Source of the DNA: Azolla caroliniana
Taxonomy: Eukaryota > Plantae > Polypodiophyta
DNA: 64,000 nucleotides
NCBI GenBank assembly: GCA_043228905.1
Contig: JBHGNT010000013.1
Coordinates: forward strand, 4,526,001-4,590,000
Reading direction: 5' to 3'
Below the pieces are notes generated by a model. It was not told the DNA's origin. It saw nothing but the letters and a program-made list of their open reading frames with translations, and did not search any database. The translations under genes and the position numbers were made by a program. Within the stretch, counting starts at the first letter, position 1. Every line of letters starts with the position of its first letter. This document shows, in pieces, positions 3,353 through 47,231 of this stretch.

Positions 3353-3845
3353 TGTTATCCGTTCCTTTGGAAAACACCTTCGATGAGCCCACAAGCTATT
3401 GGTGTCAAGGGATCGTGTTACGTGGAAGCTTCTTCTACACGGGAAAAAGAGAACAAGGATCATACACGACCTGCAACCCATTAAGTATGAACGTAGCCCG
3501 AATTACGAGTACGGGGAGAATACACAGATAGGAGTTTAGAAAAGACGAAACTTATATTCCATGATAAAGCTTACAGTGATTACAGTACTCGGCCTCAGTC
3601 GGAAACAGTACGTACAGAGCTTGCTCCTATGATATTACTCTCGCTCAGAATGATCTAGGTATCTCTCCCCCTCCCGAGGTACGCAGACCTCGGTTTATAT
3701 ACTTTTTCTTCAGATAGAGCCGAGCGATCGGCTAACTGTGAGGCTTGAAACTCGGCGTTTTCCTAACTCTACCTTCCTTACCTACTCGCCTTACCTACCG
3801 GCGTATTACATTTAACTAATTTATATTTCTAGCCTATGGACAACA
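3353..3845 (-). repeat. 3' LTR of Gypsy A
   Basis: Direct repeat of 47232-47724. Confidence 0.95.
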
Positions 3846-3961
3846 CCTGTCACGCCCGTGGGACAGGACTTTGTCCGTCGGACCCACGGTTCACCATAGA
3901 TTTGGCAAAACAACACAAATTACAAAAATTACCCGTTTCTACGAGATCTTATAGGTTGGTT

Positions 3962-4833
3962 TTATTCCTCTTCCAATATGCCGAGGATATCCTCGGGGAC
4001 GTGGGGTTGGGCTGGCTGCTTGGGAGGTGGAGTTGGTGATGGAGGTTGTGTTGCCGAGTCGGGGATGACGGTGTTGTCGTGTGTGCCCTCCTCTATTGGG
4101 ATTGATTCGGGCAGGGTCGGGGTTATACTCTGTGGCTCCGGTGGGATGTGGAGGTCTGTAGGGGCAGGTTCCTCCTGTCTAACTGCCGTGGTGAGTGGCT
4201 CGGTTGGGATATGGAGGTCGGTAGGGGCAGGTTCCTCCGGTCGAGCTGCCGTGGGAAGTGACTCGGTTCCTTGCTCGGTGGTGGTGGGAGCTCTGTGACT
4301 CCCGGTAGCGAGTTGTTCCTCCTCGTACGCTTCGGCTTCTAAACGAAACACCATTAGATCATCATTGAATTCCTCCAAGAGTTGCTCAATGGCCGCGGTG
4401 TGGGATGTTGCCAAGGTATGATATTCCTCTGTTAAGTCTTCACGGAGGGTCTAGATGCTGGTGTCATCCATCTTGTAAAACCCTCGGGCCTCCTTCCATC
4501 GGTTCTTGGCATCCGCGCGTAGTATGTGTAGGTCGGCGGCTTGGACTGGCCACTCCTGCCAGATGTGGTCAAGCATTTCTTTGATCTTCGTGGTGAATTG
4601 CTGGCGATACTTGTTGATTAGGATCTTGATTTTAGTAGCGTCCATGCCGATGCTCGCGCGGTGAACTTCCAGTGCCTCCCTTGCGGCCTTGGCTTCTGCT
4701 TGGCTTTTACGGACGAAGAGTGCTAAAGTAGCTTGATTATCTTTTGCTTTTTCAATAATGAGCCCGATGGTCTGCTCATAACGGTTGGTGAGCTGCGCTA
4801 CAGTTTCGTCCATTTCCTGTCGCCAAGCTTCCC
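3962..4833 (-). pseudogene. Gypsy A accessory ORF, C-terminal part
   Basis: QEWPVQAADLHILRADAKNRWKEARGFYKMDDTSI...ILEEE* aligns with the accessory ORF of B (10888-11934). Confidence 0.8.
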
Positions 4834-5654
4834 TGTTGTCTGCCCGGCCGGACTAGCCTCAACATAGGTGTCTATCCGACACTTCTCCAAAGGGGTGGTA
4901 AGGATTGGATACTAGGTTACACGCGTAAGATGATTACAATTAAGCACAGACGGTAAACAATACGAAGATACAGATAAACATGCAATAATTACTATTGTAT
5001 TACTTCTGTCAAACCCTTTACAATTCATCGGATCCTTTTATAGGCATCCGGCAAGGTTACAATCGGTGCGCTTAGGCAACCGACATCCGAATCGGTCCGG
5101 ATTCGGATCGGTACAACTGTACCGGATCCGTCCCTCCGAATAATAATTCTACTATTATTTACTTCCTATTATCCGATCCGACTCCGCCTTGTTGGGAATC
5201 ACCGGCTTGGGTTCACCTTCTCCTCTCGGCCACAACCGAGTAATCGCGGATCAATGCAGCAGAAAATAGGAAATACAGAGAAAGACGCGATACACAGGGA
5301 TTAACGTGGAAAACCCTATACGGGAAAAACCACGGGAGTGCGAGACTCCAAACCAAACTATGCACAGAGAAATATACAATGGCGAGCTGCAAGGCAACGA
5401 CCTTGAACTCGCTGTCCTCGCCACAGGCGGCGGAAATACACAGAGGCGTCTACCTCTTCGTCTCTCTCGTACTCTATCTCTCTCTCTCTCTCTGGGCTGC
5501 TTCCTCTTCACTCCTCTTAAGTGGAAAAACAGAAAAATGAGTAGCCCCCTAAACTGTTTGCCCTAAGTCATATTTATACACATATGACTTTCAGGCTATT
5601 TACAAATATAGCCTCAAGGGCCCTTGGCAAACATATTCACAAATATGTCCCCGC

Positions 5655-5860
5655 ATCCGGATCTCTCTCCGGGTACATTCGTCATCCGGTTCCGTAACCG
5701 GGGTCTTCATCATCCGGATCCGTATCCGGGTACTCTTCATCATCCGGATCCGCATCCGGGTACTCTTCATCATCCGGATCCGCATCCGGGTATACTTCAT
5801 CATCCGGATCCGCATCCGGGTACACTTCATCCGGCTTCATGCCGGGTACTCTTCATCGTC
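5655..5860. repeat. 30-bp tandem repeat in the C LTR (second copy at ~10516-10720)
   Basis: About 4-5 units of CATCCGGATCCGCATCCGGGTACTCTTCAT. Confidence 0.9.
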
Positions 5861-5947
5861 CGGTTCCGTAACCGCAACCGGGCCTGCCGTCATTTATCTC
5901 CGGGGACATCCCATCCGGAGGGACCGAAATCCCAACAAACTCCCCCT

Positions 5948-8900
5948 TCACTTCGGCATGGGATGTCTCTCCAATCCGATCCTCTTCCGGCATGCTTCCA
6001 GCTTGTCGGGTGTGAGCACCTTGGTCAGCATATCCGACCCGTTCTCGTCCGTGTGGATCTTTGTCAGCACGAACTCCTTGTCTTCTATCCTTTCCCGGAT
6101 CCAGTGATATCTTCGCTGGATGTGCTTCGTCCGGGAGTGATAGGCCGCGTTCTTCGCAAGGTGGATTGCACTTTGACTGTCGCAGTAGAGTCGGTACTCC
6201 TCCTGCCGGATACCGAGCTCTCTAATGAAGTCCTTCATCCATATTACTTCCTTGCCGGCTTCAACAGCTGCCATGTACTCCGCCTCCGTGGTTGACAACG
6301 CAACCGTCTTCTGCAGCCTCGACTGCCACGAAACGGCTCCCCCTGCATACGTCATCACATACCCTGACGTGGACCGGCTGGTATCTGCATCAGCCGACAT
6401 ATCCGAATCGGTGAAACCGTCGAGTTCGGGTTTACCGGAGCCGAATCGGAGGCACACATTCGCTGTGCCCTTCAGGTATCGCAGTATCCATTTGATCGCG
6501 TTCCAATGCTCTTTGCCGGGATTGCTCATGTACCGGCTCACCACTCCGACTGCATATCCGATGTCCGGTCTCGTACACACCATGGCGTACATCAAGCTCC
6601 CGACGGCTGAGGCATACGGCACTTTCATCATATCCTCCTTTTCAGCCTTTGTCTTGGGGCTTTGCTTGCTGGACAGCTTGCAGTTTGCCGGGAGGGTCGA
6701 TCCGACCGGTCTTGCCTCCGACATGTTGAACCGGTGAAGCACCTTCGTCACGTACTTCTCCTGTGACAGCCACAACTGCTTCTTCTTCCGGTCCTGGATG
6801 ATGTGCATCCCTAATATTTGCCTCGCCTGACCCAGGTCCTTCATTGAGAAGGTTCGGTGAAGAGCCTTCTTCAGCATCCGTATCTTGACCTGGTCCCGTC
6901 CGACGATCAACATGTCGTCCACGTACAGGAGGAGTATTAGAAAGTCTCCTCCTTCGAACTTCTTCACAAACACGCAGTGGTCGGACTGCGTTTTGAGGTA
7001 CCCTTCGTCGGTCATGAAGGAGTCGAACTTCCGGTACCATTGCCGGGGAGCCTGCTTCAGTCCGTAAAGGCTCTTCTTCAACCGGCATACCAGGTGCTCC
7101 TTCCCTTTCTTCTCGAATCCTTCCGGTTGCTGCATGTATATCTCTTCTTCGAGGTCACCGTGAAGGAATGCCGTCTTCACGTCCATCTGTTCTACCTCGA
7201 GGTCCATGCTTGCCGCTATGCTCAGCACCGTCCGAATGGAGGTCATCTTCACTACCGGGGTGAATATCTCGTCGAAGTCGACGCCCTTCTTCTGCTGAAA
7301 CCCCTTCACCACGATCCTGGCTTTGTATCTCGAGGGGTTTCCGGCATCTCCCGGTTTCAGCTTGAACACCCACTTGTTTCGAAGTGCCCGCTTTCCTTTC
7401 GGCAACTCCACAAGTTCATATGTGTGGTTCTCATGCAGGGAATCCATCTCGTCCTGCATGGCACTCAACCACCTGCGGCTCTTGGTGTCATGCTTTGCTT
7501 CTTCAAGGCTCTCCGGCTCCCCCTCGTCGGTTAGCAGCACGTGCTCTGGTTCCGGAAATCTCCGGGGGGCCCTTCTCTCTCTTAGAGGATATCTCCGTTC
7601 CGGAGCTTCGGTAACCGGTTCTTCCGATTCTTCTTCATCCGAATCCATTTCGGGATCGGGGCCGGTTCCGGTATCATTTTCATCTTCTTCGGCCGGTTCT
7701 GTTTCTTCACCGTCTTCGGCCGGATCCTCGAGTGCTAACCGGTCCCTTGCCGGTCGGGACTGCTCCTCGTAGAGTTGATTCTCACCGGTCGACTTGGAGC
7801 TCTTCATCTTCTTCTCCGACTCCCAGTCGGCGAGTGTCTTGTCCTCCATGAAGATGATATCACGACTCCTGAATATCTTCTTGTCGACCGGGTCCCATAC
7901 TCGGTAGCCGAACTCGTCGTCGCCGTAACCGAGGAATATGCATGGACGGGTCTTTGGATCTAGCTTTCCTCTCCGGTCCTTTGCCACATGCACATATGCG
8001 AGACACCCGAACACCTTCAGATGCCGGTAGGATACTTCCCTACCGGTCCACACTCTCTGCGGCGTGTCTCCGTCCAAAGGTACTGAGGGTGATCTATTTA
8101 TCACATATGTCGCCGTCGACATTGCCTCAGCCCAAAATCCCTTGGGTAATTTCGCATGCGCCAGCATACTCCGGACCCTCTCCATTATGGTCCGGTTCAT
8201 CCTCTCGGCCAGCCCGTTCAGTTCCGGCGTCTTCGGCACAGTAAACTCGAGTCGGATTCCCTTCGAGCGACAGTACTCCTGGAACTGCCCCCGGTATTCC
8301 CCTCCGTTATCCGCTCGTATCGCTTTCAGCTTCTTGCCGGATTCTCTTTCCACTCTTGCATGGAGTTCTTTGAAGACGGACAACACTTGGTCCTTTGTCT
8401 TCAACGGTGCCGTCCACAGTCTTCGGCTGTGATCATCTATGAAGGTTACGAAGTACTGGGCTCCGCCATGTGACTTCGTTTCTACCTGACACACATCAGT
8501 GTGCACCAACTCCAATGGTGCGCCACGTCTCGTCGGTGGCCTTGAGTGGAAAGAGGTTCGGTTCTGTTTACCGGCCAGGCAATCGGTGCACTTCTCCAGG
8601 TGCACATGCTTCACTGGAATAAGGTTGTCTTCTGCAAGCCTCTTCATCCCTTTCTCACTCATGTGGCACAGTCTCTTGTGCCACAGCTCACCGGCAGTGT
8701 CGGCCGCCACGTTCAGCTCCTCCGGACATAGCCGGGAATTCATCAGGTACAGTGTGTTGACCTTCCGGGCCCGAGCCACTATCAGGCTCCCCTTGCTGAA
8801 CTTCATGACACCGTTCCGGATGCTACCCGTGTAGCCTTCATCATCTAGCCTCCCAGCCGAGATCAGGTTCAATCGGACCTCCGGAACGTGTCGCACATCC

Positions 8901-10021
8901 TTCAGCAGCATCTTGCATCCGGTTGATGTCATCAGCCACACGTCTCCTATGCCGGCAATCCGGCATGTACCTTCATTTCCCATCCGGACACAGCCGTGCT
9001 CACCGGCTGTGTAGGATGAGAAGTATTTCTTCTCCGGGGTCAGATGGAACGATGCTCCGGAATCGACCACCCAGGTCATCTCCTCACCGGCAAGGTTCAG
9101 CTCCGTCTCTTCGGTAATGAGCATTATCTCTTCTTCACTTGCCGCGAGTGCTGTCGTTCCTTTCCGGTCCTGCCCTCGCCGATCCGGACCTCTCCGGTCC
9201 GTGGCTCCCCGGTATGCACCGATTCTCTCCGGTGACTTCTTCGAATCGGCGTCGTCGGCTCCGTTGTCTTTTCGGTAATGCCGACAATTCTTCCGGAAGT
9301 GCCCCGGCTTCCCACAGTGGAAGCATGTGGGTCTTCCTCTTGATTGCGACCGGGTCCCAGACTTCTCCCGTCTTTGCGGACTCCGGTTCCATTGTCTTCC
9401 CCGTTCCGATTCGGTAAGCAGCGCCTTCGAGTCGGAGGCCGGTTCCTTATCTCTCCGACGCGCTTCTTCATTTAGAATACTTGTCTTTACCGTTTGTAGA
9501 GACAAGTTATCTTCGGTGCAGGAGGTGCTGAGAGTCACCACCAAGTTCTCCCAGCTTTCCGGCAATGTACACATCAGGATGATGGCTTGCATTGCATCCT
9601 CCAATGGGAACTTGATCGCCGCAAGCTGATTCACGAATCCCATGAACGTGCTTACGTGTTCCACCATACTCTCGCCGTCCCGGTACTTGAGATTCACTAT
9701 CTTCCTCATCAGGGAGGTCCGGTTCAACGCATTCTTCCTCTCGTAGAGGCCCGACAGCTTCTTCCACATCTCGTATGCGTTGGTGTCGTTCGCCACGTGT
9801 TGTAGGACGCTTACATCGACATATTGTCGGATCGTCGCTACGGCTTTCCGGTTCAGGAGCTTCCACTCCGACTCAAGTACCCCTTTCGGTATTTCCGACC
9901 TGTCAATCGGTTCGTACAGGTCCCGAACAATCAGAAGATCCTCCATCTTGATCTTCCAGTCGGCGTAATTCTGTGCATTCAGCACCATCATCATCGGCTG
10001 TGCGCTGCCGCCGCCTTCCAT
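5948..10021 (-). CDS. Copia gag-PR-INT-RT-RNaseH polyprotein (uninterrupted)
   Basis: Single ORF with CFHCGKPGHFRKNC, WVVDSGAS, HTD/ADNGGEY/NGLAERMN, MDVKTAFLHG, LYVDDML, FTDSD and TKHI. The likely start is the ATG at 10021 (MEGGG), just downstream of the PBS. Confidence 0.97.
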   Translation of the reverse strand: MEGGGSAQPMMMVLNAQNYADWKIKMEDLLIVRDLYEPIDRSEIPKGVLESEWKLLNRKAVATIRQYVDVSVLQHVANDTNAYEMWKKLSGLYERKNALNRTSLMRKIVNLKYRDGESMVEHVSTFMGFVNQLAAIKFPLEDAMQAIILMCTLPESWENLVVTLSTSCTEDNLSLQTVKTSILNEEARRRDKEPASDSKALLTESERGRQWNRSPQRREKSGTRSQSRGRPTCFHCGKPGHFRKNCRHYRKDNGADDADSKKSPERIGAYRGATDRRGPDRRGQDRKGTTALAASEEEIMLITEETELNLAGEEMTWVVDSGASFHLTPEKKYFSSYTAGEHGCVRMGNEGTCRIAGIGDVWLMTSTGCKMLLKDVRHVPEVRLNLISAGRLDDEGYTGSIRNGVMKFSKGSLIVARARKVNTLYLMNSRLCPEELNVAADTAGELWHKRLCHMSEKGMKRLAEDNLIPVKHVHLEKCTDCLAGKQNRTSFHSRPPTRRGAPLELVHTDVCQVETKSHGGAQYFVTFIDDHSRRLWTAPLKTKDQVLSVFKELHARVERESGKKLKAIRADNGGEYRGQFQEYCRSKGIRLEFTVPKTPELNGLAERMNRTIMERVRSMLAHAKLPKGFWAEAMSTATYVINRSPSVPLDGDTPQRVWTGREVSYRHLKVFGCLAYVHVAKDRRGKLDPKTRPCIFLGYGDDEFGYRVWDPVDKKIFRSRDIIFMEDKTLADWESEKKMKSSKSTGENQLYEEQSRPARDRLALEDPAEDGEETEPAEEDENDTGTGPDPEMDSDEEESEEPVTEAPERRYPLRERRAPRRFPEPEHVLLTDEGEPESLEEAKHDTKSRRWLSAMQDEMDSLHENHTYELVELPKGKRALRNKWVFKLKPGDAGNPSRYKARIVVKGFQQKKGVDFDEIFTPVVKMTSIRTVLSIAASMDLEVEQMDVKTAFLHGDLEEEIYMQQPEGFEKKGKEHLVCRLKKSLYGLKQAPRQWYRKFDSFMTDEGYLKTQSDHCVFVKKFEGGDFLILLLYVDDMLIVGRDQVKIRMLKKALHRTFSMKDLGQARQILGMHIIQDRKKKQLWLSQEKYVTKVLHRFNMSEARPVGSTLPANCKLSSKQSPKTKAEKEDMMKVPYASAVGSLMYAMVCTRPDIGYAVGVVSRYMSNPGKEHWNAIKWILRYLKGTANVCLRFGSGKPELDGFTDSDMSADADTSRSTSGYVMTYAGGAVSWQSRLQKTVALSTTEAEYMAAVEAGKEVIWMKDFIRELGIRQEEYRLYCDSQSAIHLAKNAAYHSRTKHIQRRYHWIRERIEDKEFVLTKIHTDENGSDMLTKVLTPDKLEACRKRIGLERHPMPK

Positions 10022-10887
10022 TTTCTGCAACAGTCGCTCTGATACCAGTTTGTTGGGAATCACCGGCTTGGGTTCACCTTCTCCTCTCGGCCACAACCGA
10101 GTAATCGCGGATCAATGCAGCAGAAAATAGGAAATACAGAGAAAGACGCGATACACAGGGATTAACGTGGAAAACCCTATACGGGAAAAACCACGGGAGT
10201 GCGAGACTCCAAACCAAACTATGCACAGAGAAATATACAATGGCGAGCTGCAAGGCAACGACCTTGAACTCGCTGTCCTCGCCACAGGCGGCGGAAATAC
10301 ACAGAGGCGTCTACCTCTTCGTCTCTCTCGTACTCTATCTCTCTCTCTCTCTCTGGGCTGCTTCCTCTTCACTCCTCTTAAGTGGAAAAACAGAAAAATG
10401 AGTAGCCCCCTAAACTGTTTGCCCTAAGTCATATTTATACACATATGACTTTCAGGCTATTTACAAATATAGCCTCAAGGGCCCTTGGCAAACATATTCA
10501 CAAATATGTCCCCGCATCCGGATCTCTCTCCGGGTACATTCGTCATCCGGTTCCGTAACCGGGGTCTTCATCATCCGGATCCGTATCCGGGTACTCTTCA
10601 TCATCCGGATCCGCATCCGGGTACTCTTCATCATCCGGATCCGCATCCGGGTACACTTCATCATCCGGATCCGCATCCGGGTACACTTCATCCGGCTTCA
10701 TGCCGGGTACTCTTCATCGTCCGGTTCCGTAACCGCAACCGGGCCTGCCGTCATTTATCTCCGGGGACATCCCATCCGGAGGGACCGAAATCCCAACACG
10801 CCTTCCCACTTGTCCTTGCTCTTCTGACCGGCCAACACATGGCACGCCCGTGGGAAAGTGCCTTGCACTTCGAATCCACTCCCGGCC

Positions 10888-13800
10888 TCATTCTTCCTCC
10901 AGAATATCGAGCACACTCTGCTCGATGGTGTCAAGGGGTGCTTCTTCCTCCTGTTCCTTGCCTGCCTGGTCTCCGACCTCCGGTTGGGTGGGCTGTTCCG
11001 TAAAAATTTGCTGCTCCGGCTCTGCTTGATTCTGTGGTGCCGGTGCTTCCTCACCGCTTCGTTCGGGTTCTTCCTGTTCTCCCTCTGTTCCAGGCTCTGT
11101 TCTGTTACCAGTGTCGCTTTCTCCGGTCTCGACTGGTTGGCTCGGTACGCCTTCTTCCTCTGCACTGGTGTCTTCCGGTCTCAGCTCTTCTTCTTCTCCG
11201 GCATCGGTCTGCTCCTGCTCTTCTTCTTCTCCTTCGAACGGAAGTTCTTCTTCGGGTATTCCTCGTCGGGGTTGTTCGGTATCGGTTGGCTCAACTTCAG
11301 CCGGTCGCTCTCCCTCAGTTATAATGATTGGCGTCGTTCTTCCCTTAGCTTCCTGTCGTAACCGGTCTTGCTCGTATCTCTCCAACTCCAACTGAGTTGC
11401 GAGCTGCCCGTCATCCAACCTCTCTACCAACCCTCGGATTTCTTTGAGATGTTCTTCCGCTAAAGCGTAGAAATCCTCCGACAATTCTTCCCGAATGGCG
11501 ACGATACTTTCTTCATCCATCTTGTAGAACTTGTCACCGGTCTTCCTCCGATTCTCGGCATCCGCTCGGAGTGTCTGCAGCTCGGCTGCCTGTTGTGACC
11601 ACTCCTTCCATAGCTTTTCCGTACTTTCGTTGATGCTTGCCTGAGCTCGGGTACTCCATCCTGACATGATGAGCTTGATCAGGTCAACCCCCGCCTTAGC
11701 ATGCGCATAAGCTTCTTGCTTTTCCTTCCTTGCCCGTTTTATAATGTCGGCCATTATCTGAGCCTGGGCCTCGTAATCCGCTTTCTGCTTTTCATAGGTA
11801 CTTTGCAGTTTGCTGATCGTGAAGGTCGATTTTTCCTTTTCTTCATTCCTGATCTTGGTCAGATCCAGCTTTTCCCGCCTTAGCGCCTCTAATTCCTTCC
11901 TTCTCTCTGTCGCTTGGGCTATTTCCGCCGACAATGCTTCCTTGTTGGCACTGACCTCATCTATTGCCTTAGCCAGGTCTAATCGGGTCTCTTTGAGCTG
12001 TTCTTTCAGCTTCTCTATTTGCCGGTCGTAAGTTGCTGCCCGTTTCTTGTTCTCTGACTCGGCCTGCTTGTGATCTCGGTAGAGACGGTCGAAGTCCTTC
12101 GTCTTCTGCTTCAGGCGTCAGTTTGCCTGAGCTCTTAACCGATCATCCCGGTCCTTCTGTTGTCGGAGTTCTTCCTGCAGTCGTTCTATCTCCTGCTCGG
12201 CATGTCGACGCAGTCGGTCCTTCTCCTTTTGCAGCTTCTCTTTTTCTTCTTGCAGTCGGTCATTAGTGGCTCGACCTTTCCGGAGGCCTTCTTCCATTTT
12301 TCGTCTGTCGTCCTCCACCGCTTTCCGCTACTCCCTTTCTCTTTCCCTTAATGCCTCCTCAGCTTTTAACTCCTCTCGTAAGGTTTCTATTATTTTTTCG
12401 GTCTCAGGGCCGGTTTGCAAGGCTACCGGTTCCGGTTCCGGTTGCTTCCTTGTTGTCCCGACCGGCTCGGTGACAACTTGTGCTTGTTGAATTCCTTCCC
12501 TTGCCTGCAACAGCCCCCCTTGCATTTCCTCGATCTGTGTTCGGAGCGCGACCAACTCCTGAGTTGTTGTATGCGTCAGCTGTTGCCTACACGTTTCTTC
12601 TTTCTCTAACTGGTCCGCTACTCCCGATAACTGCTCCGAAAGCCATCTCAACCATTGTGGCTTTGTTCTTCCTGTGTCGGGGTGGCCTTGCTCACTTAAC
12701 TCAGGCTATTTTTCCGGCCTTTTCTCTGGCTCCGGCGCTTGTTCATTCTTCTTCTCTGGGATGACCGGTTCTCTGAAGTCCGGCACAACCGGTGTCGGTG
12801 CTGCTTCCCTCGGTACGGGTTCTGGTACTGCTTCCGCCTCGGCTACTGGAGGTGGTCCTTGCGCCCTCTGCTGAGTTTTGTCAACTGGTGGAGCCGGTCC
12901 TTTCGCCCCTCTCTCCCGACCTTGTCTTGCTGGGAGTCTTACCAGTGGTTCAGATGAGTCCTCTGTTTCAGCTTCCTCCTCCGGTGCGGCTACCAGACGG
13001 ACCTTTTGTATAAAGACCTCTGGTTCCGGTTCCGGCCATCGCAGCGTTATATTGATTGGTTTGTGTGCTACCGGTTCCTCCTCGGCCGATTTCCCTTTGC
13101 CTTTTCCTGCCGGTTTTGCCTTTGTTGCCGGTTCCTGTTGCTGTCAGGATGGTCCTTCCCCCCGCTGTTCTGCTTCTTGCTGGGTCCATCCGGGGATGTG
13201 TTTCTCCAAGATCTATCAGTGCTTTGTGACCTTTTTCGGCGTCGTCTCCTACCGACCTCTTTTCTTTTGTGTGATGGGGAGCACCGGTGGGACTAACACG
13301 GTTAGCCATTGTGCTATCCCGGCCCATGGCTTTTTTCCTTCCACAAGATTCTTGATGGCCTCCTTCAATCCTTCGGTTATGAAATGGAGCCAGTCTACTT
13401 GTAAGCCTTCGTATGCTGCTATTAAGAACGCTGCCCGGTACTTGGCTATGGCCGGGGGACGGGGATTCACGAATCCGTATTCCATCATGGCGCGGGCCAC
13501 TTCTCCGAACAGCAAGTTCTCTCCGCCCTGCGTTCGGTACGCCTTGCTGCTGATAGAGTACTCACCGAAATATTCGAAGAGGATTTCACTTGAAGGGTTT
13601 TCGATTGTTTGAAGTCCTCCTGCTTTTATCCCCGTGAGCGTCTGCACCGCTCCTTCCGTGACTTCTGATAAATCGATCGATGCTGCCGCCTGCTCTGGTT
13701 CTGCATGTGGTGGAGCGTCGGCGATCCGCAACAATCCTTTTAACCCGTTCTCCCTCATCCATTGGCGTGCCTCTTCCGACAGTACCATTGTTTCGAATTC

Positions 13801-14052
13801 TTCTTCTGCTGCCTGTTGTTCGGGATCAGGCTGTGTGTGCTCTGTACGTCGTATCGCTCTTCTGTGCTTCTGCGCCTGTATGTAGGAAAATTCGTAAAAA
13901 GTGAGTCCTTCGCAGGCCTGTGTCTTATATAGTGGCTTTTGCCTCGAGCCGCCCTTTTTCGTTTCCCGCGCATGTTCCTCTCCCGCCATAATTAGTATGT
14001 CCTTTCTTGTTTGCCGCGTGTGAGTGCCCACGTTCCATGCTTTAAATAGCAA
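10888..14052 (-). pseudogene. Gypsy B 3' accessory ORF (N-terminal globular domain + long coiled coil + acidic tail), frameshifted
   Basis: ORF pieces 13249-14052, 12328-12651, 12118-12318 and 10888-11934 lie between INT and the 3' LTR on the sense strand. Homologous pieces occur in A and at 63675-63977. Confidence 0.8.
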
Positions 14053-14261
14053 GTACGCGCACGTCCTTCTTTAATGCATGGCGCCTCTTCGTTGCATGGT
14101 GGCGCTCCCACCTCTTCTGATCTCCCCATCATTACTATGATTCGCGTCGATTTTGCCCACGTCTTTTTTTTTTTTTTTTTTTTTTTTTTTCTGTTTGGAC
14201 CACTTCATTTGCTGGTCCCCCCCGATTTGTTCAGGTCGGTTCGTGTGGATACCGGATCCTT

Positions 14262-17200
14262 CTATCGGTTTTCCGGGATAGTCTTTGTCAGTATCGGTGT
14301 CGGTTCTTCCTCGGTCCAAATATCTTCAGCAACGTCTGTCGGTGTCGGTTCCTCATCTTGCTGGATTTCCGGGTTTTGCTTGAACGGGTTCGCTGGCATA
14401 TTTCCCTTATACGGCTTTAGCCGAAACCCATTTGTCCACTTGCCGATGACATCTCCAGACAACGTGCCGAGCTGATACGACCCATTGTACTCCTTGGTGA
14501 TCCAGAACGGTCCGGTCCACCGAAACCGCAACTTTCCCGGCATGTTCCCCATCCGTGTCTGGTATAGTAGCACCGGTTTCCCGACTTCGAACTCCTTTTC
14601 GTTGCCACGCCGGTGTCGGTCCACGAAAGCTTTTCTCCTCCTTTGCTCCAGTTCGAGTTGTAGTAAGCTGGCTATTCGGTTTTCTTCTAATTCCAACAAC
14701 GTCGCCAGCCGGATTCGTTCAGACTCGATCTCACTTAAGCGCTCCTTCACCTGAATCCGTAAGCTGGGGATCTGGAACTCTACCGGCATGACCGCTTCTA
14801 AACCGAATGCTAGTCGGAACGGGGTTGTCCGGATGCTAGTTTTGTACGTTGTTTGGTACGCCCATAACGCGCTTTGCAATTTCGTATCCCAGTCGGTCCG
14901 GTTCTCGTTGATGATTTTTCGTAGGATGTTCTGCAGAGTTTTGTTCGTTGATTCCGCTAGTCCATTGGCTTGAGGGTAGTAGGGAGTACTCTTTTTATGT
15001 ACCACCGCGTAAAATGACGTCAGGCTTTCTACTACCTGCCCGAGAAAATGTCCTCCTTGGTCACTTATAAGCTCGATCGGGCATCGATACCGGCACCATA
15101 TGCACTCGTACAGGAACTTTGCTGTGGATGCGGCCGTGTTGTCCCGTAAGGCCTTTGCTTCTACCCATTTGGTGCAATAGTCGGTTGCCACTATGACATG
15201 CCGATTTCCGGTTCGCATTGCCGGTGGCTTGAAGGGACCGACAAAGTCCAAACCCCACTTTTGAAACGGTTCCAAAGGCAAGACCGGGTGGTGTGGCATC
15301 CGGGCCTGCTCCGTTGGTTGGCCCAGTCGTTGACACAAATCGCATTCTCTGCTATACTTCACGGCATCTTTTAGGGTGGTGGGCCACCACAGTCCGCTCT
15401 GCCATATTTTCCGAGCGGTTGTGTCGCCGGCATAATGCCCGCCGGCAATTCCACAGTGGGCTTCCCTGAGGATTAAATCCTTCTCATCGCTCCGCACTGC
15501 TCGTCTCCAGATGCCATCTGCCCCCTTCTGATAGAGGGTGTCTCCAACCAAGCAGAAATGTCTCCTTCTTACTGCTACCCTTTTCCTTTCATCGCGGTCC
15601 ATGTTCTCCGGGGGAACTCCGGTGCTCAGGAACTGATGCATCTCAGTTAGCCATGTGTCTTCATCGGCTACCGTTGCATCCGTTGCCGGTTTCGTCGTGA
15701 TCCGGAACAATTCGGCGTCGGGAAACTCATCCTGGACGCCGTCCCCTGCTTCTTCGGATTCGAGTCTGCTTAGGTAGTCCGCTACCGCATGCTGCGCCCC
15801 GGGTCGGTGGAAAATGTCGAATTCAAATTCCTGTAACAGCAGTGTCCATCGTGCAATTTTTCCCGTCAGGGATGCCTTCGAGACCAGGTAGAGTAGTGCC
15901 GAATGGTCGACATGGAAGGAAAACTTCCTTCCGAGCAGATAGTGCCTGTACTTTGCGACACTATACACCATTCCCAATGCCTCGCGTTCCGTCGTAGAGT
16001 AATTCCGTTCGGCTTTTGAGAGTTTCCGGCTTGCGTAGTACACCGATCGGTACCATTTGGCTCCGTGAGTTGCATCAGAACGTTGCCGATTGCTACGTCC
16101 GACGCGTCGACGAAGACGTGAAAGCTTTTACTCCAATCCGGCGGTTGCACCACCGGAGCTTGCGACAGCATAACCTTCAACGCTTGGTAGGCTTCCTCCT
16201 CCGTCTCCGCCCATAGGAAGGGTACCCTATGTACGGCGGTATGTAACGGTGTAGCGAAGTCTGCGAGGTGCCGTATCATCCGGCTATGCCACCTTATTTG
16301 GCCCAGGAACCGGCTTAAAGCCTTTGCGTTATTTTGTGTTGGTGCCTCGAGAATCGCCTTGACTTCATCCGGATCTACCGCGATTCCTTCCTTACTCACC
16401 ACGTGCCCTAGTAAGTTGCCGCTTGCCACTCCAAAGACGCACTTGGCCGGGTTCAGGCGCAATCGGTACTCGCGACACTTCTCCAAGCACAGCCGGAGGT
16501 GATCGAGATGCTCTTCGTGCCGGTTGTAGACTGCGAAATCGTCAAGGAAGACCTGCATAAAACCGGGGATATATTCCCCGAAAATTTCCATTATTATCCT
16601 TTGAAAGGTCTCCGAACATCATCACGACCGCGACGAACACTCCCCATTCCGTCACGAACGCTGTCTTCTCCTGGTCGGCCGGGTTCATTCGTATTTGGTT
16701 GTAGCCGTTAAATCCATCCAGGAAGCTGTAAACTTCGTGGCCGACTACCGCATCTAACACCCCGTCCGTAAATGGTAGTGGAAACGCATCGGTCACTGTT
16801 GCGGTATTTAGTTTTTGGTAGTCCACGCATACCCGGATTTTGCCGTTCTTTTTCGGGACCACCACTATCAGACTTAGCCAGGTTGCCTGCTTGACCGGTC
16901 GGATAAATCCGACCCGATGGAGCTTATCAATTTCCTCCTTCACCTTCGCCGCATAATTCGGATTCATCCGGTACCTGCGTTGAGCGATCGGTTTCGCGTC
17001 CGTACTTAGGTGAATTTGGTGCTGATAGAGCTGGGGGTCCAGCCCTCGCATGTCTTCGTACGACCACGCGAACACATCCTTGAAGTCTGTTAATAATGCT
17101 ACCATTGCCTTCTTTTCTTCCTTCGGCAATTCCTTTGCAACATTTACCGGTCGGGGCTTGTCTGCTGTGCCGAGGTCCACCTCCTCTAGTTGGGATGCTT

Positions 17201-20000
17201 TTACCCTCTGGGATATCGTCATTTCCCTCTCTAGGGATTCCTGCGCTTGTCGCAGTTCTCGGATCGCCGCTTGGTCCGGTTCATCCGGCGTCGTAATGTA
17301 CGGTTCTACAGCCGCCGTGATATCTACCTCAAATAGTGGGACGATTCGTGGGTGTTCCTCGAGGTACCGCTCGACTTCCTCGTCCGGTAATCCCTCCAAC
17401 ATGTTAATGCTTTCCGCATACAATGGAGTTGCTTCCTTACTGGTGATCACCCGTGGTTGCGTCGTTACTCGTACCTTTGTTTTCCCTCGCCGGAATGTGA
17501 TCATGTTCTTTTGCCAGCTCTGCTTGATATGCGTTGTTCGCAGCCATGGTCGTCCTAGCAATAGGGGGTACGCGCCTTGTACATTTAGCTGCAGCACCAC
17601 GGCCGATATCCGGAATACGTGGCCTCCGATCGTTACTTCCAAATCCCGGATAAGCCCGGTCGGTCGGACTGAGCTGGTATCCGCCATGCGTAACCAGAAG
17701 GGGCATGGTTCCCATTCCCGGATGCCCAGGTTGTTGCATGTCTGTCGGCTGATGACATTTACCCCAGAGCCTCCGTCAATAATCGTTCCAGCAATTTCCT
17801 TTCCTTTCACGATTGCCGTGATCGCCGGGCTACTTGTATCGACCACCGCTGGTCCTTCCTCCGGGTTGGAGAAGAATGCCGGTGCTGGCGTCGGCTTTGG
17901 TTTGCTCACGGATGCCTGTAGGTTTGCCGTAAACCGTGGCACCAACTGTAGTAGTCGTGCTAACGGCAGCACGATTTGACAGTCCTGTAGCGCTTGCCAC
18001 GTCGGGTTTTGTCCTGGCTGTATGATTTCTTCGTCTTTTGGCATATTTTGGTCTCTTACTTCTGCCGCATTCTGTTCATTGGCCTCCTTGATCCATTGTG
18101 CCGCTTGTTTTCTGATTGCCTCCTGGGCTTCCCACTCGGCGGTCTTTCCCTTTGACCGGGTTGTGACCTGCTGTACTTCTGTTATTTCGGCTGTAACCAT
18201 GTTGACTTCCGGCTGCTTGTCATTGGTTTTGCTTGGGCATTGGTTACTATAGTGGCCTTCCTTACGGCAGTAATAACAGTACACCTTGTGACTGTTGCTC
18301 GTTTCTCCTTTGTCCCCGGTTTGGAGGGTGGGTATGCTCCGGCGGTCGTCTTTGGTTTTTCGGTTATCCGGTACCGATACCGATACCGGGTTGTCATTCC
18401 TCACTGCCTCCCGACGTTCCTCTCTTCGCAAAAATCCACGCTTCTGATTCCGTCGGAAATTTCGGTTCCCTTGTCGCCTCTCTTCTCTGCGTCGTTCATA
18501 TTCCGGGGATTCGTCTCGGTCGTACCGGTCCCAGGGGTAGCTATCTCTGCGTCTCTCCTCTCGGTCATAGTTATCGCGTCTTCTATCAGGGTATCTGTTA
18601 CCGCGTTCGCGTTGGTAGCGGTCGTCTCTCCGGAATCGATCCTCGTCCGGGTTCTGATTGCGCGGTTCTATGTGTCGAACCGGTGCTGCCTGCCGATTTA
18701 ACAGGTTATATTCGCATCGGTCCGTTGTATGGGCTCGAGAGTTGCAGATCATACATAGTGTCCGCATGGTGCAGTCTACTGTTGAGTGCCCCGAATTTAG
18801 ACATGTTGTGCATTGTAAGGCCTGTCGGAACCTCAGGTCTTCCTCCTTCGGGAGTGCCCGGTGTAACATCCCCATCGACAAGAAGGGGCTAGTCTTGTCC
18901 ATTTCTAAAACCCGATCAATAACTTGGTCCATTGTGCTGGTTTGGAAATCAAGGACTCCGCACATTGTTCGAAGTGGCTCTTTCAGCACGGCCAAAAAGA
19001 CTGCTTTGGCTTCGTCTTCGGGTGGTGCTCTTGTCAGTTGGCTGTGTAGGGTCTGAAACCGAATGATGAATTGTGGCACAGTCTCGTTCTCTTCCTGCCG
19101 GGTGGTGTAGAACTGCCCGACCAATTCCCTTTGCTCAAATTGTCTGTGAAAAAGCCTGAGGAATCTGGCCTTCAAGGCATCAAATGTGGCAAAGCTGCCC
19201 GGTAAGTGCTTTGCGTGCCATCGGGCTGCCGGTCCTTCTAAGGTTATGCCGAATTCGGCGACTTTGGATCGTTCGGCTTCGGGCTCCGTCAGTTTTTGGG
19301 AGACATGGTTGGCTTCCCATGTTTGGAGGAATGCGTACACGTGTGCCTCCGCGTCGGCCTCATCCCGGTACTTTGGGTATGGGTACGGCATCGTGTCGTC
19401 CAACTGACTCTCCTGCTTCCTCCGCTCTCTGTCCGCTGTTGGCGTTGGTGTGAAAACCTTTGCTTCCTCCGCGGTTGTTGCCGGTATCCGCTCCTTCGGT
19501 TCCTCCGCGGGTGTTGTCGGTATCCGCTCCTTCGGTTCCTTCGCGGTTGTTGTCGGTATCCGGTCAGCCTCCCTCGGCGATTGCCGGTCACCGAATTCCA
19601 GGGTTATTTCTTCCTCTGGCTTCGGTGTTACTGAGTCTTCCGACCCCTCTTCCTCCCGGTCGTTTGGTGTGTCGTGGCTGCTTTTATACCGGGACGCATC
19701 GCTTCCATCGCTTTCCGACTCCGTCTCAAGTGTTGCGAATGCTTCCGAGTCCCCGTCGCCCCGGGCGAGCGTCTGTAGTATCGTTTCCGCCTCTTGCAGG
19801 CTTGTTATGCTACTGCCTTCGTCGGGGATTTGCAGAACCCGGAACTGCAGTGCTTCTTCTTCGACTCTCCGAAGAGTTTTGGAGAATGACCGATCCCGCC
19901 GGATCTCGTCGACGGCTTGCTGCAGGGCTTCCCGTCGTTGCTCGCATTCGGTGTATCGTCTCCCTCGTTCGGTGATGTGGTCATCGTTTGGTCTAGACAT
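14262..20000 (-). pseudogene. Gypsy B gag-pol (gag with 3 CCHC knuckles, PR, RT, RNase H, integrase), two frameshifts
   Basis: ORFs 16542-20084 (IIDGGSGVN, FLDGFNGYNQI), 15866-16591 (FLDDF, VDASD) and 14262-16043 (HC..GH, WGLDFVGP, SDQGGHF, NGLAESTN, WTGPF). No chromodomain seen. Confidence 0.93.
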
Positions 20001-20435
20001 CCATCCCCCGGTTGTCCTCTGCACTTTGCAGGAATCGTGGTCGCCAAAATAGTGTTGTCTGCCTGGCCGGACTAGCCTCAACACAGGTGTCTATCTGACA
20101 CTTCTCCAAAGGGGTGGTAAGGATTGGATGCTAGGTTACACGCGTAAGATGATTACAATTAAGCACAGACGGTAAACAATACGAAGATACAGATAAACAC
20201 GCAATAATTACTATTGTATTACTTCCGTCAAACCCTTTACAATTCATCGGATCCTTTTATAGGCATCCGGCAAGGTTACAATCGGTGCGCTTAGGCAACC
20301 GACATCCGAATCGGTCCGGATCCGGATCGGTACAACTGTACCGGATCCGTCCCTCCGAATAATAATTCTACTATTATTTACTTCCTATTATCCGATCCGA
20401 CTCCGCCTTCCCACTTGTCCTTGCTCTTCTGACCG

Positions 20436-20869
20436 TGTGGGATGTTGCCAAGGTATGATATTCCTCTGTTAAGTCTTCACGGAGGGTCTAGATGCTGGTG
20501 TCATCCATCTTGTAAAACCCTCGGGCCTCCTTCCATCGGTTCTTGGCATCCGCGCGTAGTATGTGTAGGTCGGCGGCTTGGACTGACCACTCCTGCCAGA
20601 TGTGGTCAAGCGTTTCTTTGATCTTCTGGTGAATTGCTGGCGATACTTGTTGATTAGGATCTTGATTTTAGTAGCGTCCATGCTGATGCTCGCGCGGTGA
20701 ACTTCCAGTGCCTCCCTTGCGGCCTTGGCTTCTGCTTGGCTTTTACGGACGAAGAGTGCTAAAGTAGCTTGATTATCTTTTGCTTTTTCAGTAATGAGCC
20801 CGATGGTCTGCTCATAACGGTTGGTGAGTTGCGCTACAGTTTTGTCCATTTCCTGTCGCCAAGCGTCCC
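20436..20869. repeat. ~435-bp direct duplication of 4399-4833 flanking element B
   Basis: Near-identical sequence (about 8 differences) on both sides of B. Confidence 0.93.
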
Positions 20870-21284: not shown

Positions 21285-21810
21285 AAGGGTGTTAAGGAAA
21301 CGTTAAGAAGGCACTTGGGCTCTTCTTATGTGTGCGGCGGATTGTGTTGTGCTGGATCGTTTGGTGCTCAAACACAGAAGGGAAGGGGGAAGGAGACTTA
21401 CCTCTGTAGCAGCCAAAACTTCTTCTACTTCATTACACGTAGAGCTCTACTTGCTCTCGTCTGTTTCTCTCTTCTACTCTCACTCTCTGAGTTCTACCTC
21501 TCTATCTTCACTCTCTCTCTCTCTCAGAGTTCTACTTCCTGTGTTTCTTACTTACCTACTCCCTACTTTTTACCTAAGTAATAAGTTACTTACGTATGCA
21601 GCTAATTAGTTGCCTGTAGCTAAATAGCTGTTAGTAGCTAATTAGCTGTCAGTCGCTAAATAGTTGTTATTAGCTAATTAGCTGTCAATAGCTAATTAGT
21701 TGTTTCTTCTTTATGTTCACAAGTAGCTAAATAGCTACTATAGCTTATTTCCCAATAAGCATCACATACCATGTTGAGCTTGCTTCTCAACACTCCCCCT
21801 CAAGCTCAAC

Positions 21811-26103: not shown

Positions 26104-29100
26104 ATGGAGTACTCAGAGCACGAACGCAGACGTAGCTCCCGCAACAGCAAAAAATCGACATTGCAGATTGAGAGCTACAACACAGAACCCGCTCGATCAT
26201 CGTCCAGGTATGTTTCAGTTACAGAAACCCCAAACATTTGTTTTTTCTTTTTGACTACTGTCTGAACTTTGGTGCCGATTCATATTTCCCCAAAATCAAA
26301 TAGGGCGAAGTCCTTGGAGTTCCATACAAGGATGTCTCGCAAATCGGGGAGTAGCAACAGGTGTGTTTATATTACTTTTTTTGTGTTTAATCCTGTCTTT
26401 AGTGATTAGGGTTCGTGATTGAAATTTCTGATTAGGGTTTGTGATTGAAATTTCTGATTAGGGTTTTTGATTATAAATTTCTGATTAGAATTTCTGAATA
26501 GGGTTTCTGGTTACAAATTTTGATTACAAATTAGAATTTCTGAATAGGGTTTTTGTTTATAAATTTCTGCTTAGGATTTCTGATTAGGGTTTGTGATTGA
26601 ATTTTTTTATTAGGGTTTCTGATTGAAATTTCTGATTAGGGTTTTTGATTATAAATTTCTGATTAGAATTTCTGAATAAGGTTTCTGGTTACAAACTTCT
26701 GATTACAGATTTTGATTAGGGTTTCTGATTTCAAACTTCTGATTACAGATTTTGATTAGGTTAAGTTAAAGATTTTGCACCATTTTTGTTGTTGTTGATT
26801 GGGGTTTTTGATTCTCACATATTCTGATTTTGCACTATTTCTGATTTCTGAAATGATATTTCAGATGGCTCGTTCCTCCGTATACGAGAGTGCTAAACTT
26901 CGCAAAATTTTGCGAGACAAAGGAGGACTTCCACAACACCTATGGTCTGTCACTCGAGGGTGTTGACCCTGCTATCCTAAGTGATAAATTGATCAGTGAT
27001 ATAGACTGGATGACAGTATATACAGTGCCTAGAGTCAAAGGCAAGGTCAAGCTGAAGCATGTACGAGCCGACTTGTACGATGACTGCATGAGACTGCACC
27101 AGAAAGTTCATCAGGAGATCCCAGTCAACAATGAGTTGTCAGTTTCATTTGCTAGAGCATTTGCATATGAGTACTGCAAAACAGCGAAGGAATCTAGAGA
27201 CCCTGAAATGTATAGGGTAGCTTGGGCAGTCTATGGTGAGGCATCGGTAAAAAGATGCCGAAAGATGGGGACCTTAGCACAAAAAATAGACAGATTTTGG
27301 AGCATGGCAGCTGTTGATGCAACTGCCGACTCCCAGCAAGACCGGGGGCATACACCACACCGACACCCAAGGAAAGCCAATGTCGATGATACAGGTGAGA
27401 CATTGGTTAGCTATATGCTAAAAAATGTCCATGAAGCCTGTGAGACATTGGCATTTTTTAAGACTGATTTAGAGAAAGCCACAATGGCTTCTGCAATGGA
27501 GAGCAAAGTTACTTCTGCTGTTACAACAATTAGAAATAAGATTCAGGTAACTATTGTTTTGCTGGTATGTGATTGTGTTATAAATAACGGGTAAAATGTG
27601 CTAATCAAGCATTATCTGGAATAGGTTGCGCAACAGGAGCTTGAATTAGAGGGGCCACTGGATCCCCAGCGTAAAATAGAACTGCAAATAGAGATCCAGG
27701 TTCTTTCAATGAACCTGGACCTTCTAGGTGTAAATACTGTTGCAGATTACAATTTGGATAAGCTTCAAGTAAGTTAACGATTCCTGAGAAAAGTTGGTGT
27801 ATCTTTCAACAACAAGAATAATTAATCGGTAAATTTCTCTGTTGCGTTGAAGGAACAATACATTCATCAAGAACAGGTAGTTAGCTGCCTTAAGAAGAAG
27901 CTACATTTTGTGGAGGGAATGGTAAGGACCAGACAGGATTTGGACCTGAACATTCTTGCTCCCTTACCAAATGAAGTAGAACCAGAAAATGATTTATTGA
28001 CAGTTCAAGCACGTTGCATCGCTTGCGGGTTAGGTGTGGAGGACAAAACTGCGTCTTTGTTGGTTCACCTACAACCATGCAACCACACATACCATCTGCT
28101 TTGTTTTCAACATGCCTGTCGAATTGCTGCATTCTGTTTGGGAGATTGCAGTACAACTCTACCAAATGAGTGGAGAAAACAAACAGGTATACCATACTGT
28201 AGCTAATAAGCTTAGTCTTTTCTAATTAGCTATCCTACTAGCTAATGAGCTACTAGCTAATTAGCTATCCTAGTAGCTAATTAGCTATGGTACTAGCTAA
28301 TTAGCTAGTACCATAGTTGTGTAAAAAAGCTAAATAGCTATCCTACTAGCTAATTAGCCACTGGCAACTAATTAGCTATCCTAGTAACTAATTAACTACT
28401 GCCATAGTTGTGTAAAGTAGCTAATAAGCTATCCTAGTAGCTAGTTAGCTATGGTACTAGCTAATTAGCTAGTACCATAGTTGTGTAAAAAAGCTAATTA
28501 GCTATCCTACTAGCTAATTAGCTACTGGCAACTAATTAGCTATCCTACTAGCTAATTAGCTATCCTACTAGCTAATTAGCTATCATAGTAGCTAATTAGC
28601 TACTGACATAGTTGTGTAAAGTAGCTAATAAGCTATCCTAGTAGCTAGTTAGCTATGGTACTAGCTAATTAGCTAGTACCATAGTTGTGTAAAAAAGCTA
28701 ATTAGCTATCCTACTAGCTAATTAGCTACTGGCAACTAATTAGCTATCCTACTAGCTAATTAGCTATCCTACTAGCTAATTAGCTATCATAGTAGCTAAT
28801 TAGCTACTGCCATAGTTGTGTAAAGTAGCTAATAAGCTATCCTAGTAGCTAATTAGCTACTAGCAGCTAATTAGCTATCCTACTAGCTAATTAGCTATCA
28901 TAGTAGCTAATTAGCTACTGACATAGTTGTGTAAAGTAGCTAATAAGCTATCCTAGTAGCTAATTAGCTACTGGCAGCTAATTAGCTATCCTAGTAGCTA
29001 ATTAGCTACTGGCAGCTAATTAGCTGTCCTAGTAGCTAATAAGCTATCCTAGCTACTACATAGTTGAGAAAGTAGCTAATTAGCTTTCATTGTAGCTAAT

Positions 29101-32039: not shown

Positions 32040-32549
32040 TTGACAGCTAATTAGCTGCATTTGTACAGCTAATTAGCTACTGATGACTATTTCGCTATAA
32101 CTTATAACTTAAAACTTAACAAAAAAGACATGATTTTATTGAGAAAGAAGCACAGAAAGCAGACTGTATACAAGAAATTGATTCCAAACGAATTTATTGA
32201 TCTGTTTTCGCGAAATACATGTTTGTTTTACAAGAGAACATGGTAAGTGCTACTTGTAGCTACAAATTCCATGGCATACTATTGTAAATACATTTGTACA
32301 GCTAATTAGCTGCATTTGTACAGCTAATTAGCTACTGATGACTGTTTCGCTATAACTTATAACTTAAAACTTAACAAAAAAGACATGATTTTATTGAGAA
32401 AGAAGCACAGAAAGCAGACTGTATACAAGAAATTGATTCCAAACGAATTTATTGATCTGTTTTCGCGAAATACATGTTTGTTTTACAAGAGAACATGGTA
32501 AGTGCTACTTGTAGCTACAAATTCCATGGCATACTATTGTAAATACATT
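32040..32549. repeat. ~255-bp tandem duplication of the transposase 3' end and UTR
   Basis: The block ACAGCTAATTAGCTGCATTTG...CCATGGCATACTATTGTAAATACATT occurs twice in tandem. Confidence 0.85.
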
Positions 32550-47200: not shown

Positions 47201-47231
47201 TCTCACAACTGTAACCGGGCGTGCCAAATTG

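Follow-up and report, generated by a model that had tools for sequence, protein, structure and literature searches.

Can an LTR retrotransposon start its plus-strand DNA when the place of the polypurine tract (PPT) beside the 3′ LTR is taken by a sequence complementary to a tRNA? Priming of the second strand from a PPT is regarded as universal among retroviruses and LTR retrotransposons, and in the accessible text of two reviews it is given as the rule (PMC5371799, PMC10886601). The question is raised by an element, Gypsy B, in a stretch of 64,000 nucleotides from Azolla caroliniana, the whole of which is called the window here. A first-pass annotation had noticed an inverted tRNA-type motif beside the 3′ LTR of this element, and the motif, TGGCACGCCCGTGGGA, is indeed located on the + strand at positions 10840-10855, 2 nt from the LTR end at 10837.

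Layout of the window and anatomy of the elements

The window is made up of LTR retrotransposons nested in one another. The parts of the elements needed here are as follows.

20435 to 4834, (-) strand: Gypsy B, whole element, inserted within the related Gypsy A
20053..20435, (-) strand: 5′ LTR of Gypsy B, with its TATA-like box oriented in the sense direction only and its outer 7 nt absent
10804..10837, (-) strand: Gypsy B 3′ LTR, first 34 nt (U3 end), on the inner side of the Copia insertion
4834..5189, (-) strand: Gypsy B 3′ LTR, remainder, 98% identity to 20053-20409
5190..10798, (-) strand: nested Copia with LTRs at 5190-5937 and 10051-10798 (1 difference in 748 nt) and a 1387-codon open frame
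14262..20090, (-) strand: gag-pol of Gypsy B in three frames (gag, zinc knuckle, RT, RNase H, integrase)
14162..14192, (-) strand: A-rich run of purines that closely follows pol and may be an internal PPT
10888..13989, (-) strand: extra 3′ ORF of Gypsy B on the sense strand, broken, with a coiled-coil part; its stop is 8 nt before box 2 of the site described below
3353..3845, (-) strand: Gypsy A 3′ LTR; partner at 47232-47724 with 25 differences in 493 nt; 5-nt flanks ACCAT/ACGAT

The assignment of the Gypsy B 3′ LTR holds because the nested Copia that splits it, which is young, was taken into account. The segments 4834-5189 and 10804-10830 displayed 7 differences in 383 nt from 20053-20435, and the TSD of the Copia, CGCCT, is found at 5185-5189 and 10799-10803. 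Gypsy B thus has the LTR pair and the gag-RT-RNase H-integrase order of a Ty3/Gypsy element, and likewise a tRNA-type primer-binding site (PBS) after the 5′ LTR. A Pfam search of the pol frames revealed no chromodomain after the integrase, and the three frames gave no Pfam match to a second or archaeal RNase H. The frame breaks in pol are decay of this single copy, because gag-pol is open in relatives, with 1500 codons in contig L001 and 1937 codons in L003. The orientation assumed in the first-pass annotation agrees with the TATA-like boxes, all of which have the direction of the coding frames in the LTRs of Gypsy A and of Gypsy B.

Between pol and the 3′ LTR, Gypsy B contains about 3.4 kb and the members of its clade (see below) 2.9-3.8 kb. 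The extra ORF in this region, a single stop-free frame of 936-1170 codons in L007, L009, L019, and L058, had no Pfam match. This lineage-specific ORF of about 1000 codons encodes a coiled coil and an acidic tail, and its N-terminal part has 52 homologues, all unnamed; the Atlas look-alikes of one homologue, P0121, include PF20167 (0.85) and PF03078 ATHILA (0.84), which are leads only.

The flanks of Gypsy A fit a 5-bp TSD with one mismatch, and Gypsy B is without a normal TSD. Instead, 436 bp of Gypsy A DNA are duplicated (98%) on the two sides of Gypsy B, at 4398-4833 and 20435-20869, with no short TSD. Its damaged end, the 5′ LTR minus the outer 7 nt, is the U3 end, which is set by removal of the plus-strand primer. 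As a speculation on a single case, these flanks possibly reflect a one-ended integration with host repair.

Elsewhere in the window, further fragments of the same Gypsy clade lie at 55174-57004 (+), 62674-62890 (+), and 63711-63998 (-), with no LTR pairs in the window. Copia-type LTRs are located at 21291-21792 and 39094-39610. The tracts 28000-30200 and 34273-35300 are built of a near-palindromic TAGCTAATTAGCTA unit and include an array of 20-nt period of about 800 bp. A 255-bp tandem duplication (99%) is at 32043-32555, and a duplication of about 1.1 kb containing 83-bp repeats at 36403-38625.

No polypurine tract at the 3′ LTR

The absence of a purine run, which had been stated for Gypsy B, was confirmed: the 25 nt that precede the 3′ LTR contain purine runs of 3 nt at most, and the nearest run of 10 nt ends 53 nt upstream of the LTR, inside the 3′ ORF. 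Purine runs of at most 3 nt in the last 25 nt were also the result for all nine clade junctions measured, including those of Gypsy A and Gypsy B. A canonical PPT in other copies would have spoken against the annotation, and none was present in the clade members seen to their 3′ LTR. The nested Copia, whose PPT at about 5940-5949 is normal, served as internal control. A G-rich purine tract at the 3′ LTR was found in this Copia, in the second Copia, and in L076, one of three contigs (L066, L072, L076) that we take to be Athila-like from their PBS.

The A-rich run just after pol, which could be an internal PPT, is present in Gypsy B and many relatives and absent in Gypsy A, L019, L029, and L053. 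It lies about 3 kb from the LTR.

A bipartite site complementary to the 3′ half of a tRNA

The site beside the 3′ LTR is larger than the motif first noted. It comprises 40 nt and ends at 10879, so that a hairpin and a second box follow the first one. The same arrangement is found in Gypsy A.

10838..10839, (+) strand: gap separating the LTR from the end that matches CCA, 2 nt at all 10 junctions seen
10840..10856, (+) strand, equal to minus-strand DNA: box 1, complement of tRNA-Arg nt 59-76 with nt 66 unpaired and one mismatch at nt 59
10857..10869, (+) strand: spacer of 13 nt between tRNA positions 58 and 59, with a 4-bp hairpin at 10858-10868 (GTGC-CTT-GCAC)
10870..10879, (+) strand: box 2, complement of tRNA nt 49-58 (5′ side of the T-stem plus T-loop) with one G-T wobble at 10875
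3848..3887, (+) strand: Gypsy A inverted bipartite site, with box 1 at 3848-3864, hairpin at 3866-3876, and box 2 at 3878-3887, 2 nt from the 3′ LTR

Compared with the reference tRNAs, the sense strand of the site reads as nt 49-58, the 13-nt spacer, nt 59-65, and nt 67-76 with CCA. With up to one mismatch, TGGCACGCCCGTGGGA had two matches in the window, both at 3′ LTR junctions (3848 and 10840), and none in 100 dinucleotide shuffles. An Rfam search of 10700-11000 yielded three matches at E values of 5 to 10, none of them a tRNA, and neither in the window nor in 25 long loci did ARAGORN predict one. A Pol III B-box was rejected as the identity of the site, since the B-box is split by the spacer.

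Conservation of the site in related elements

To judge the conservation of the site, an RNase H-integrase (RH-INT) alignment was scanned over metagenome contigs (23 of 64 parts), and the best 80 of 506 confirmed stretches were used. Most of the related contigs come from one assembly series, so the families are independent and the hosts may not be. Seven clade contigs extend at least 2.9 kb past the integrase, and six of these reach their own 3′ LTR (L007, L008, L009, L019, L058, L053). All six contain the tRNA-like end 2 nt before the LTR, L053 carrying the site only partly. The motif is thus conserved across related families, and a lack of conservation would have spoken against the first-pass reading. 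Two more junctions of the same kind, in L023 and L055, precede B-like LTRs. In sum, the copy of the tRNA-Arg 3′ end is 2 nt from the LTR at 10 of 10 clade junctions seen, in about six families with 49-85% RH-INT identity to Gypsy B. L029 breaks off about 245 nt before the place where its LTR would be expected, and no 3′ LTR was obtained in L057, L061-L063, L077, and L080. Among the viral contigs, no pol relatives and no junction motif were found.

Both boxes and the hairpin are present at nine of these ten junctions. The exception, L053, is the most distant one and has 83% identical LTRs; it matches nt 62-73 exactly (including nt 66), is changed at nt 75, and has a loose second box. Among four families, mean identity is highest for box 1 (0.90), followed by box 2 (0.65), compared with 0.25-0.26 for the 57 nt upstream and 0.30 for LTR nt 6-45. 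The site is conserved and structured.

That chance or misassembly created the site has a negligible probability. The copy in the window is decayed and rearranged, and the related contigs are collapsed repeats, which would fit an artefact; against it stand the shuffles, the occurrence in two independent elements of the window, and the coverage of the junction by contigs from four runs (organisms A, B, and C and a leaf metagenome). The loose ends of these junction-spanning contigs consist of other LTR ends on one side and of sequences resembling a T-loop complement on the other. No RNA run was listed among those containing 10800-14000. Run X23, which is an RNA run only by guess, contributed four contigs of other families over the motif, from which strand and ends are not readable.

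Two contigs, L040 and L037, with a B-like LTR about 320 nt after pol and neither motif nor PPT, were rejected as counter-examples because this LTR interrupts an internal sequence of the L007 type; no TSD was seen. Their LTRs look like insertions into the internal region of another family.

For the Athila-like contigs L066 and L072, the starts of the 3′ LTRs were guessed from G-runs. At 11146-11167 of L072, an LTR end is followed by 2 nt and then by a PBS-like TGGTATCA..., which is unlike the PBS at the 5′ LTR of L072. This end may belong to a partner family sharing the LTR.

Fit to tRNA-Arg, covariation, and predicted pairing

The reference tRNAs, fetched by the pattern of the 3′ half, are prokaryotic or viral and not those of the host. 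ARAGORN assigned 15 of 16 sequences containing the 3′ half of the site to tRNA-Arg (14 of 14 prokaryotic and one of two viral ones; 13 with the anticodon TCG and two with TCT). Plants presumably possess a tRNA-Arg with this 3′ half. Like a tRNA-type PBS, the site forms a complement to the last 18 nt of the tRNA, CCA included, with 16 of 18 positions in Gypsy B and 17 of 18 in L019, measured on non-host tRNA-Arg (from L081 and L091-L104).

The spacer is 13 nt long in eight of eight sequences and its hairpin occurs with five 4-bp stems, all of them Watson-Crick paired: GTGC/GCAC, GGAC/GTCC, GCGC/GCGC, GTAC/GTAC, and GGGC/GCCC. Seven cells were changed on both sides of the stem, a count that was not reached in any of 500 shuffles and was lower in slid registers; it carries the caveat of relatedness, and alignment A2 mis-registers the L007/L008 hairpin, which leads to four unpaired cells. 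In the cofold model, the minus strand pairs around the hairpin with all but one or two of 28 tRNA nucleotides. Compared with shuffles of spacer and box 2, box 2 lowers the modelled hybrid energy in eight of eight sequences (p 0.000-0.04, with RNA-RNA parameters as proxy). L053 has no clear hairpin, and box 2 gives no energy gain there (p 0.67, the tRNA fragment being shifted by one base in that run). The methylated A58 of a tRNA is unable to pair, and the pairing break between A58 and nt 59 is also the limit of the classic 18-nt PBS. According to the part of one study that was accessible, the modified nt 58 acts as RT stop (PMC1785368).

Some substitutions in the site preserve pairing on the minus strand. 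Among the variants listed, T and C at 10875 form a wobble or a Watson-Crick pair with G53 of the tRNA, respectively; the C share by depth is 14% in X1, 36% in X11, 49% in X8, and about 100% in X16. The changes common to several contigs, G53A, G68A, and U55C (G59A is found in L008 only), are G-T/G-U wobbles on the minus strand. Opposite transitions occur at nt 65 in L055 and at nt 75 in L023 and L053. About five transitions are wobble-compatible and three are of the opposite kind; nt 55 and 59 also show transversions, and box 2 has insertions of 1 nt. This wobble bias is a weak hint and not a result. The bases pairing with CCA are substituted in Gypsy A (nt 74, a transversion) and at the said nt 75; in L019, which belongs to the same family as Gypsy A, they are intact.

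The 5′ PBS mostly has the same design and varies in type

A normal 5′ PBS of Gypsy B had been described at 20037-20046 and is present there, as part of a 12-nt core 6 nt from the LTR.

20035..20046, (-) strand: Gypsy B 5′ PBS TGGCGACCACGA, then a 5-bp hairpin (about 20019-20031); tRNA type differs from that of the 3′ site
47215..47226, (-) strand: Gypsy A 5′ PBS TGGCACGCCCGG, then a hairpin and a T-loop box; tRNA type same as that of the 3′ site

In seven of nine 5′ PBSs of the clade, the 12-nt core is followed by a hairpin and then by CGAAC or CGGAC, the complement of tRNA nt 53-57, which means that the 3′ site is built like the working PBS of the lineage. The background for the hairpin with its T-loop-complementary box is 1.8% of 20-nt slots. 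A clean box is missing in Gypsy B and L053, and none of the three Athila-like 5′ PBSs contains the hairpin or the box.

The 5′ core exists in three types, one in Gypsy A, L019, L007, L008, and L058, the second in Gypsy B, L003, and L023, and the third in L053, and the 3′ site is constant. The 3′ site consequently does not track the element's own PBS, and Gypsy B, with its 5′ PBS and 3′ site of different types, would need two different tRNAs. The 12-mer of its 5′ PBS opens a PBS labelled Arg or Trp in the accessible text of PMC4724089, and four of eight viral matches with the tRNA end fitting this PBS are tRNA-Asp. Self-priming, in which the 3′ site would pair with the own PBS, was rejected as a general mechanism, because the 5′ PBS changes its type while the 3′ site does not.

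The same data bear on a quite improbable reading, in which the site is an old inverted copy of the PBS kept for another job, such as packaging, end-to-end pairing of the RNA, or a decoy for tRNA fragments, and the plus strand starts from a primer that was not recognized. The 3′ site is complementary to the own PBS over 8-10 nt in Gypsy A, L007/L008, and L058, and the A-rich run after pol in several members might be such a primer. In Gypsy B, L003, L023, and L053, however, with a 5′ PBS of another type, only about 4 nt can pair with the 3′ site; the A-rich run is far from the LTR and missing in the four members named above; and the LTR boundary is exactly 2 nt from CCA at every junction.

Still less probable is that the site serves as the PBS of an antisense transcript, so that either strand could be copied and each end would be the minus-strand PBS in one direction. 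The junction on the + strand, with LTR end, 2 nt, and a PBS matching in 17 of 18 nt, has this form, and its match to a tRNA is closer than that of the 12-nt 5′ PBS. The TATA-like boxes in the LTRs of Gypsy A and Gypsy B are in sense orientation only, however, as are all long ORFs, and a tRNA on DNA would still be needed at the other end, so that the novelty stays.

Probable priming of the plus strand by a second tRNA

According to the accessible text of PMC5371799, the plus-strand primer determines the U3 boundary. Because the primer sets this boundary, it is needed exactly at the 3′ LTR junction, and two RNAs have a sequence that fits there: a host-type tRNA-Arg annealed to the minus strand, or a piece of the element's own RNA that RNase H has left. 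As judged from sequence, a second host tRNA probably primes plus-strand DNA on the minus-strand DNA, from a conserved two-part tRNA-Arg site that replaces the PPT. The first-pass annotation had proposed a second tRNA as plus-strand primer; the conserved motif and the lack of a PPT speak in favor of this proposal, which gains support from the second box (nt 49-58), the co-varying hairpin, and the same design of the 5′ PBS.

The process may be envisioned as follows. The first tRNA would prime the minus strand at the 5′ PBS, as usual. After clearance of the RNA by RNase H, tRNA-Arg, whole or as a 3′ fragment no shorter than 28 nt, would anneal to the minus-strand DNA with nt 59-76 and 49-58, and the DNA hairpin would be looped out at tRNA position 58. 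Extension of the CCA end by RT, for 2 nt and then into U3, would fix the left LTR boundary. RNase H would remove the tRNA as it does with a PPT, and integrase would trim the 2 extra nt. The site itself would be inherited through the RNA genome and not re-copied from a tRNA, which fits the persistently missing nt 66.

The main rival is a primer in cis, which we regard as unlikely: a tRNA-like RNA of the element itself would survive RNase H and prime the plus strand, as a tRNA mimic replacing the PPT. This predicts the same position, 3′ end, and 2-nt gap and does not require a new annealing step. The sense RNA can fold into a T-arm-like stem with an inner hairpin (-12 to -20 kcal/mol for 50 nt), and the PPT of Ty3 is already atypical and recognized by its structure, as stated in the accessible text of PMC5371799. 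A primer in cis always pairs perfectly with its own DNA copy, however, and has no need to match 27 nt of a tRNA, an identity that would require an extra reason. Moreover, the G-to-A change at nt 53 in Gypsy B and L008 creates an A-C mismatch in the sense stem and a wobble on the minus strand, the design mirrors the 5′ PBS, which binds a real tRNA, and no partner for the acceptor stem was seen upstream. The tRNA is favored as primer over the RNA in cis because the site copies the architecture of a working PBS, because of this superfluous tRNA identity, and because the shared changes are minus-strand wobbles while G53A breaks the sense-strand stem.

Some data also speak against priming by a tRNA. 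The substitutions at the CCA-pairing bases of Gypsy A, L023, and L053 and the one at nt 65 in L055 would impair priming unless they are decay of single copies, RNase H could destroy the tRNA/DNA hybrid before extension, and L053 is without a clear hairpin or an energy gain by box 2.

Relationship to known lineages and priming systems

In a quick ML tree of 47 RH-INT rows, with midpoint root and no curated references, the elements with the motif are in one clade of 22 rows (SH-aLRT 99), which includes the fern protein P0116 of Adiantum nelumboides. Outside this clade are liverwort, other fern, and conifer rows, and further out those of angiosperms and the Athila-like ones, a placement that by itself makes a non-seed plant the likely host. 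In the same tree, the 22-row clade is thus apart from the angiosperm and L066/L072/L076 rows and does not group with Athila. Of the Athila traits, which are a PBS for tRNA-Asp/Asn and an extra 3′ ORF in sense orientation, the ORF is present, and the PBS of the clade differs from that of L066/L072/L076.

Like Athila, Tat/Ogre/Retand, Phygy, and Selgy (Neumann et al. 2019, PMC6317226, accessible text), the Gypsy A/B lineage has no chromodomain, a length of about 10 kb, a long extra 3′ ORF, and a gap of 3-7 nt between LTR and PBS. PBSs for tRNA-Arg are common in TatIII, Ogre, and Retand according to the accessible part of supplement 3 of that study. The Gypsy A/B lineage differs from these plant lineages in standing apart from the Athila-like rows, in having no archaeal RNase H, which characterizes Tat/Ogre/Retand, and in not being compact like Phygy and Selgy, which have a polyprotein-filled internal region and a 4-bp TSD: its pol is 2.9-3.8 kb from the 3′ LTR. 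Chromoviruses are distinguished by the chromodomain. The lineage is an unassigned non-chromovirus Gypsy lineage, and its structure departs from the descriptions of Phygy and Selgy.

Gypsy B shares with canonical LTR retrotransposons and retroviruses the TG...CA ends of the LTRs, gag-pol in Gypsy order, the PBS after the 5′ LTR, and a primer end 2 nt before U3; it differs in having no PPT and, at the place of one, a minus-strand site complementary to a tRNA. Of the features described, the bipartite PBS of Ty1 and Ty3 comes closest; it is located on the sense RNA, and likewise two boxes pair with acceptor stem and T-arm; the boxes of the Ty1 PBS are separated by a small internal loop (PMC5371799, accessible text). 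Both parts of the Ty3 PBS are on the sense RNA for one minus-strand primer, and Ty3 keeps its PPT, whereas the polarity of the 3′ site is opposite, the CCA end is part of its match, and its tRNA can be another than that of the 5′ PBS. The self-priming elements Tf1/Tcn1 and TAR, and also the Helenus TRIMs, combine an LTR element with non-standard priming or tRNA-derived sequence. Self-priming in Tf1/Tcn1 and TAR concerns the minus strand, however, and Helenus has a tRNA-like promoter within the LTR and keeps PBS and PPT (PMC10886601, accessible text), while in Gypsy B the tRNA copy lies beyond the LTR and the hairpin splits its B-box.

Priming with two tRNAs had been called a mode not known to be described, and full-text searches of literature outside subscription journals, judged from their listings, returned no description. 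A two-tRNA copying mode is not mentioned in the accessible text of PMC6317226, PMC4408406, PMC11963269, PMC5371799, PMC4724089, PMC3185511, and PMC10886601; in the main text of PMC3185511, the word "tRNA" does not occur.

Meaning for the replication of LTR elements

Taken over the clade, it is rather likely that an old Gypsy lineage of non-seed plants, reaching at least the relatives of fern elements, has abolished the PPT. Both strands would be primed by host tRNAs, in some families by two different ones, with docking sites of matching three-way-junction form in both the RNA genome and the minus-strand DNA. This would be a new variant of LTR-element replication, provided that the priming proves real. 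The two leading mechanisms, tRNA and primer in cis, differ by one readable nucleotide, nt 66 of the tRNA, which would be a C if the 5′ PBS of Gypsy A is taken as guide.

For annotation, tools that orient elements by PBS and PPT could call such elements backwards or miss them, and the inverted site provides a simple signature for surveying other genomes. If the reading with a second tRNA is true, an LTR reverse transcriptase can normally start the plus strand from a tRNA annealed to DNA, and does so in a successful lineage of several families, which would be a natural system for asking what lets a primer resist RNase H.
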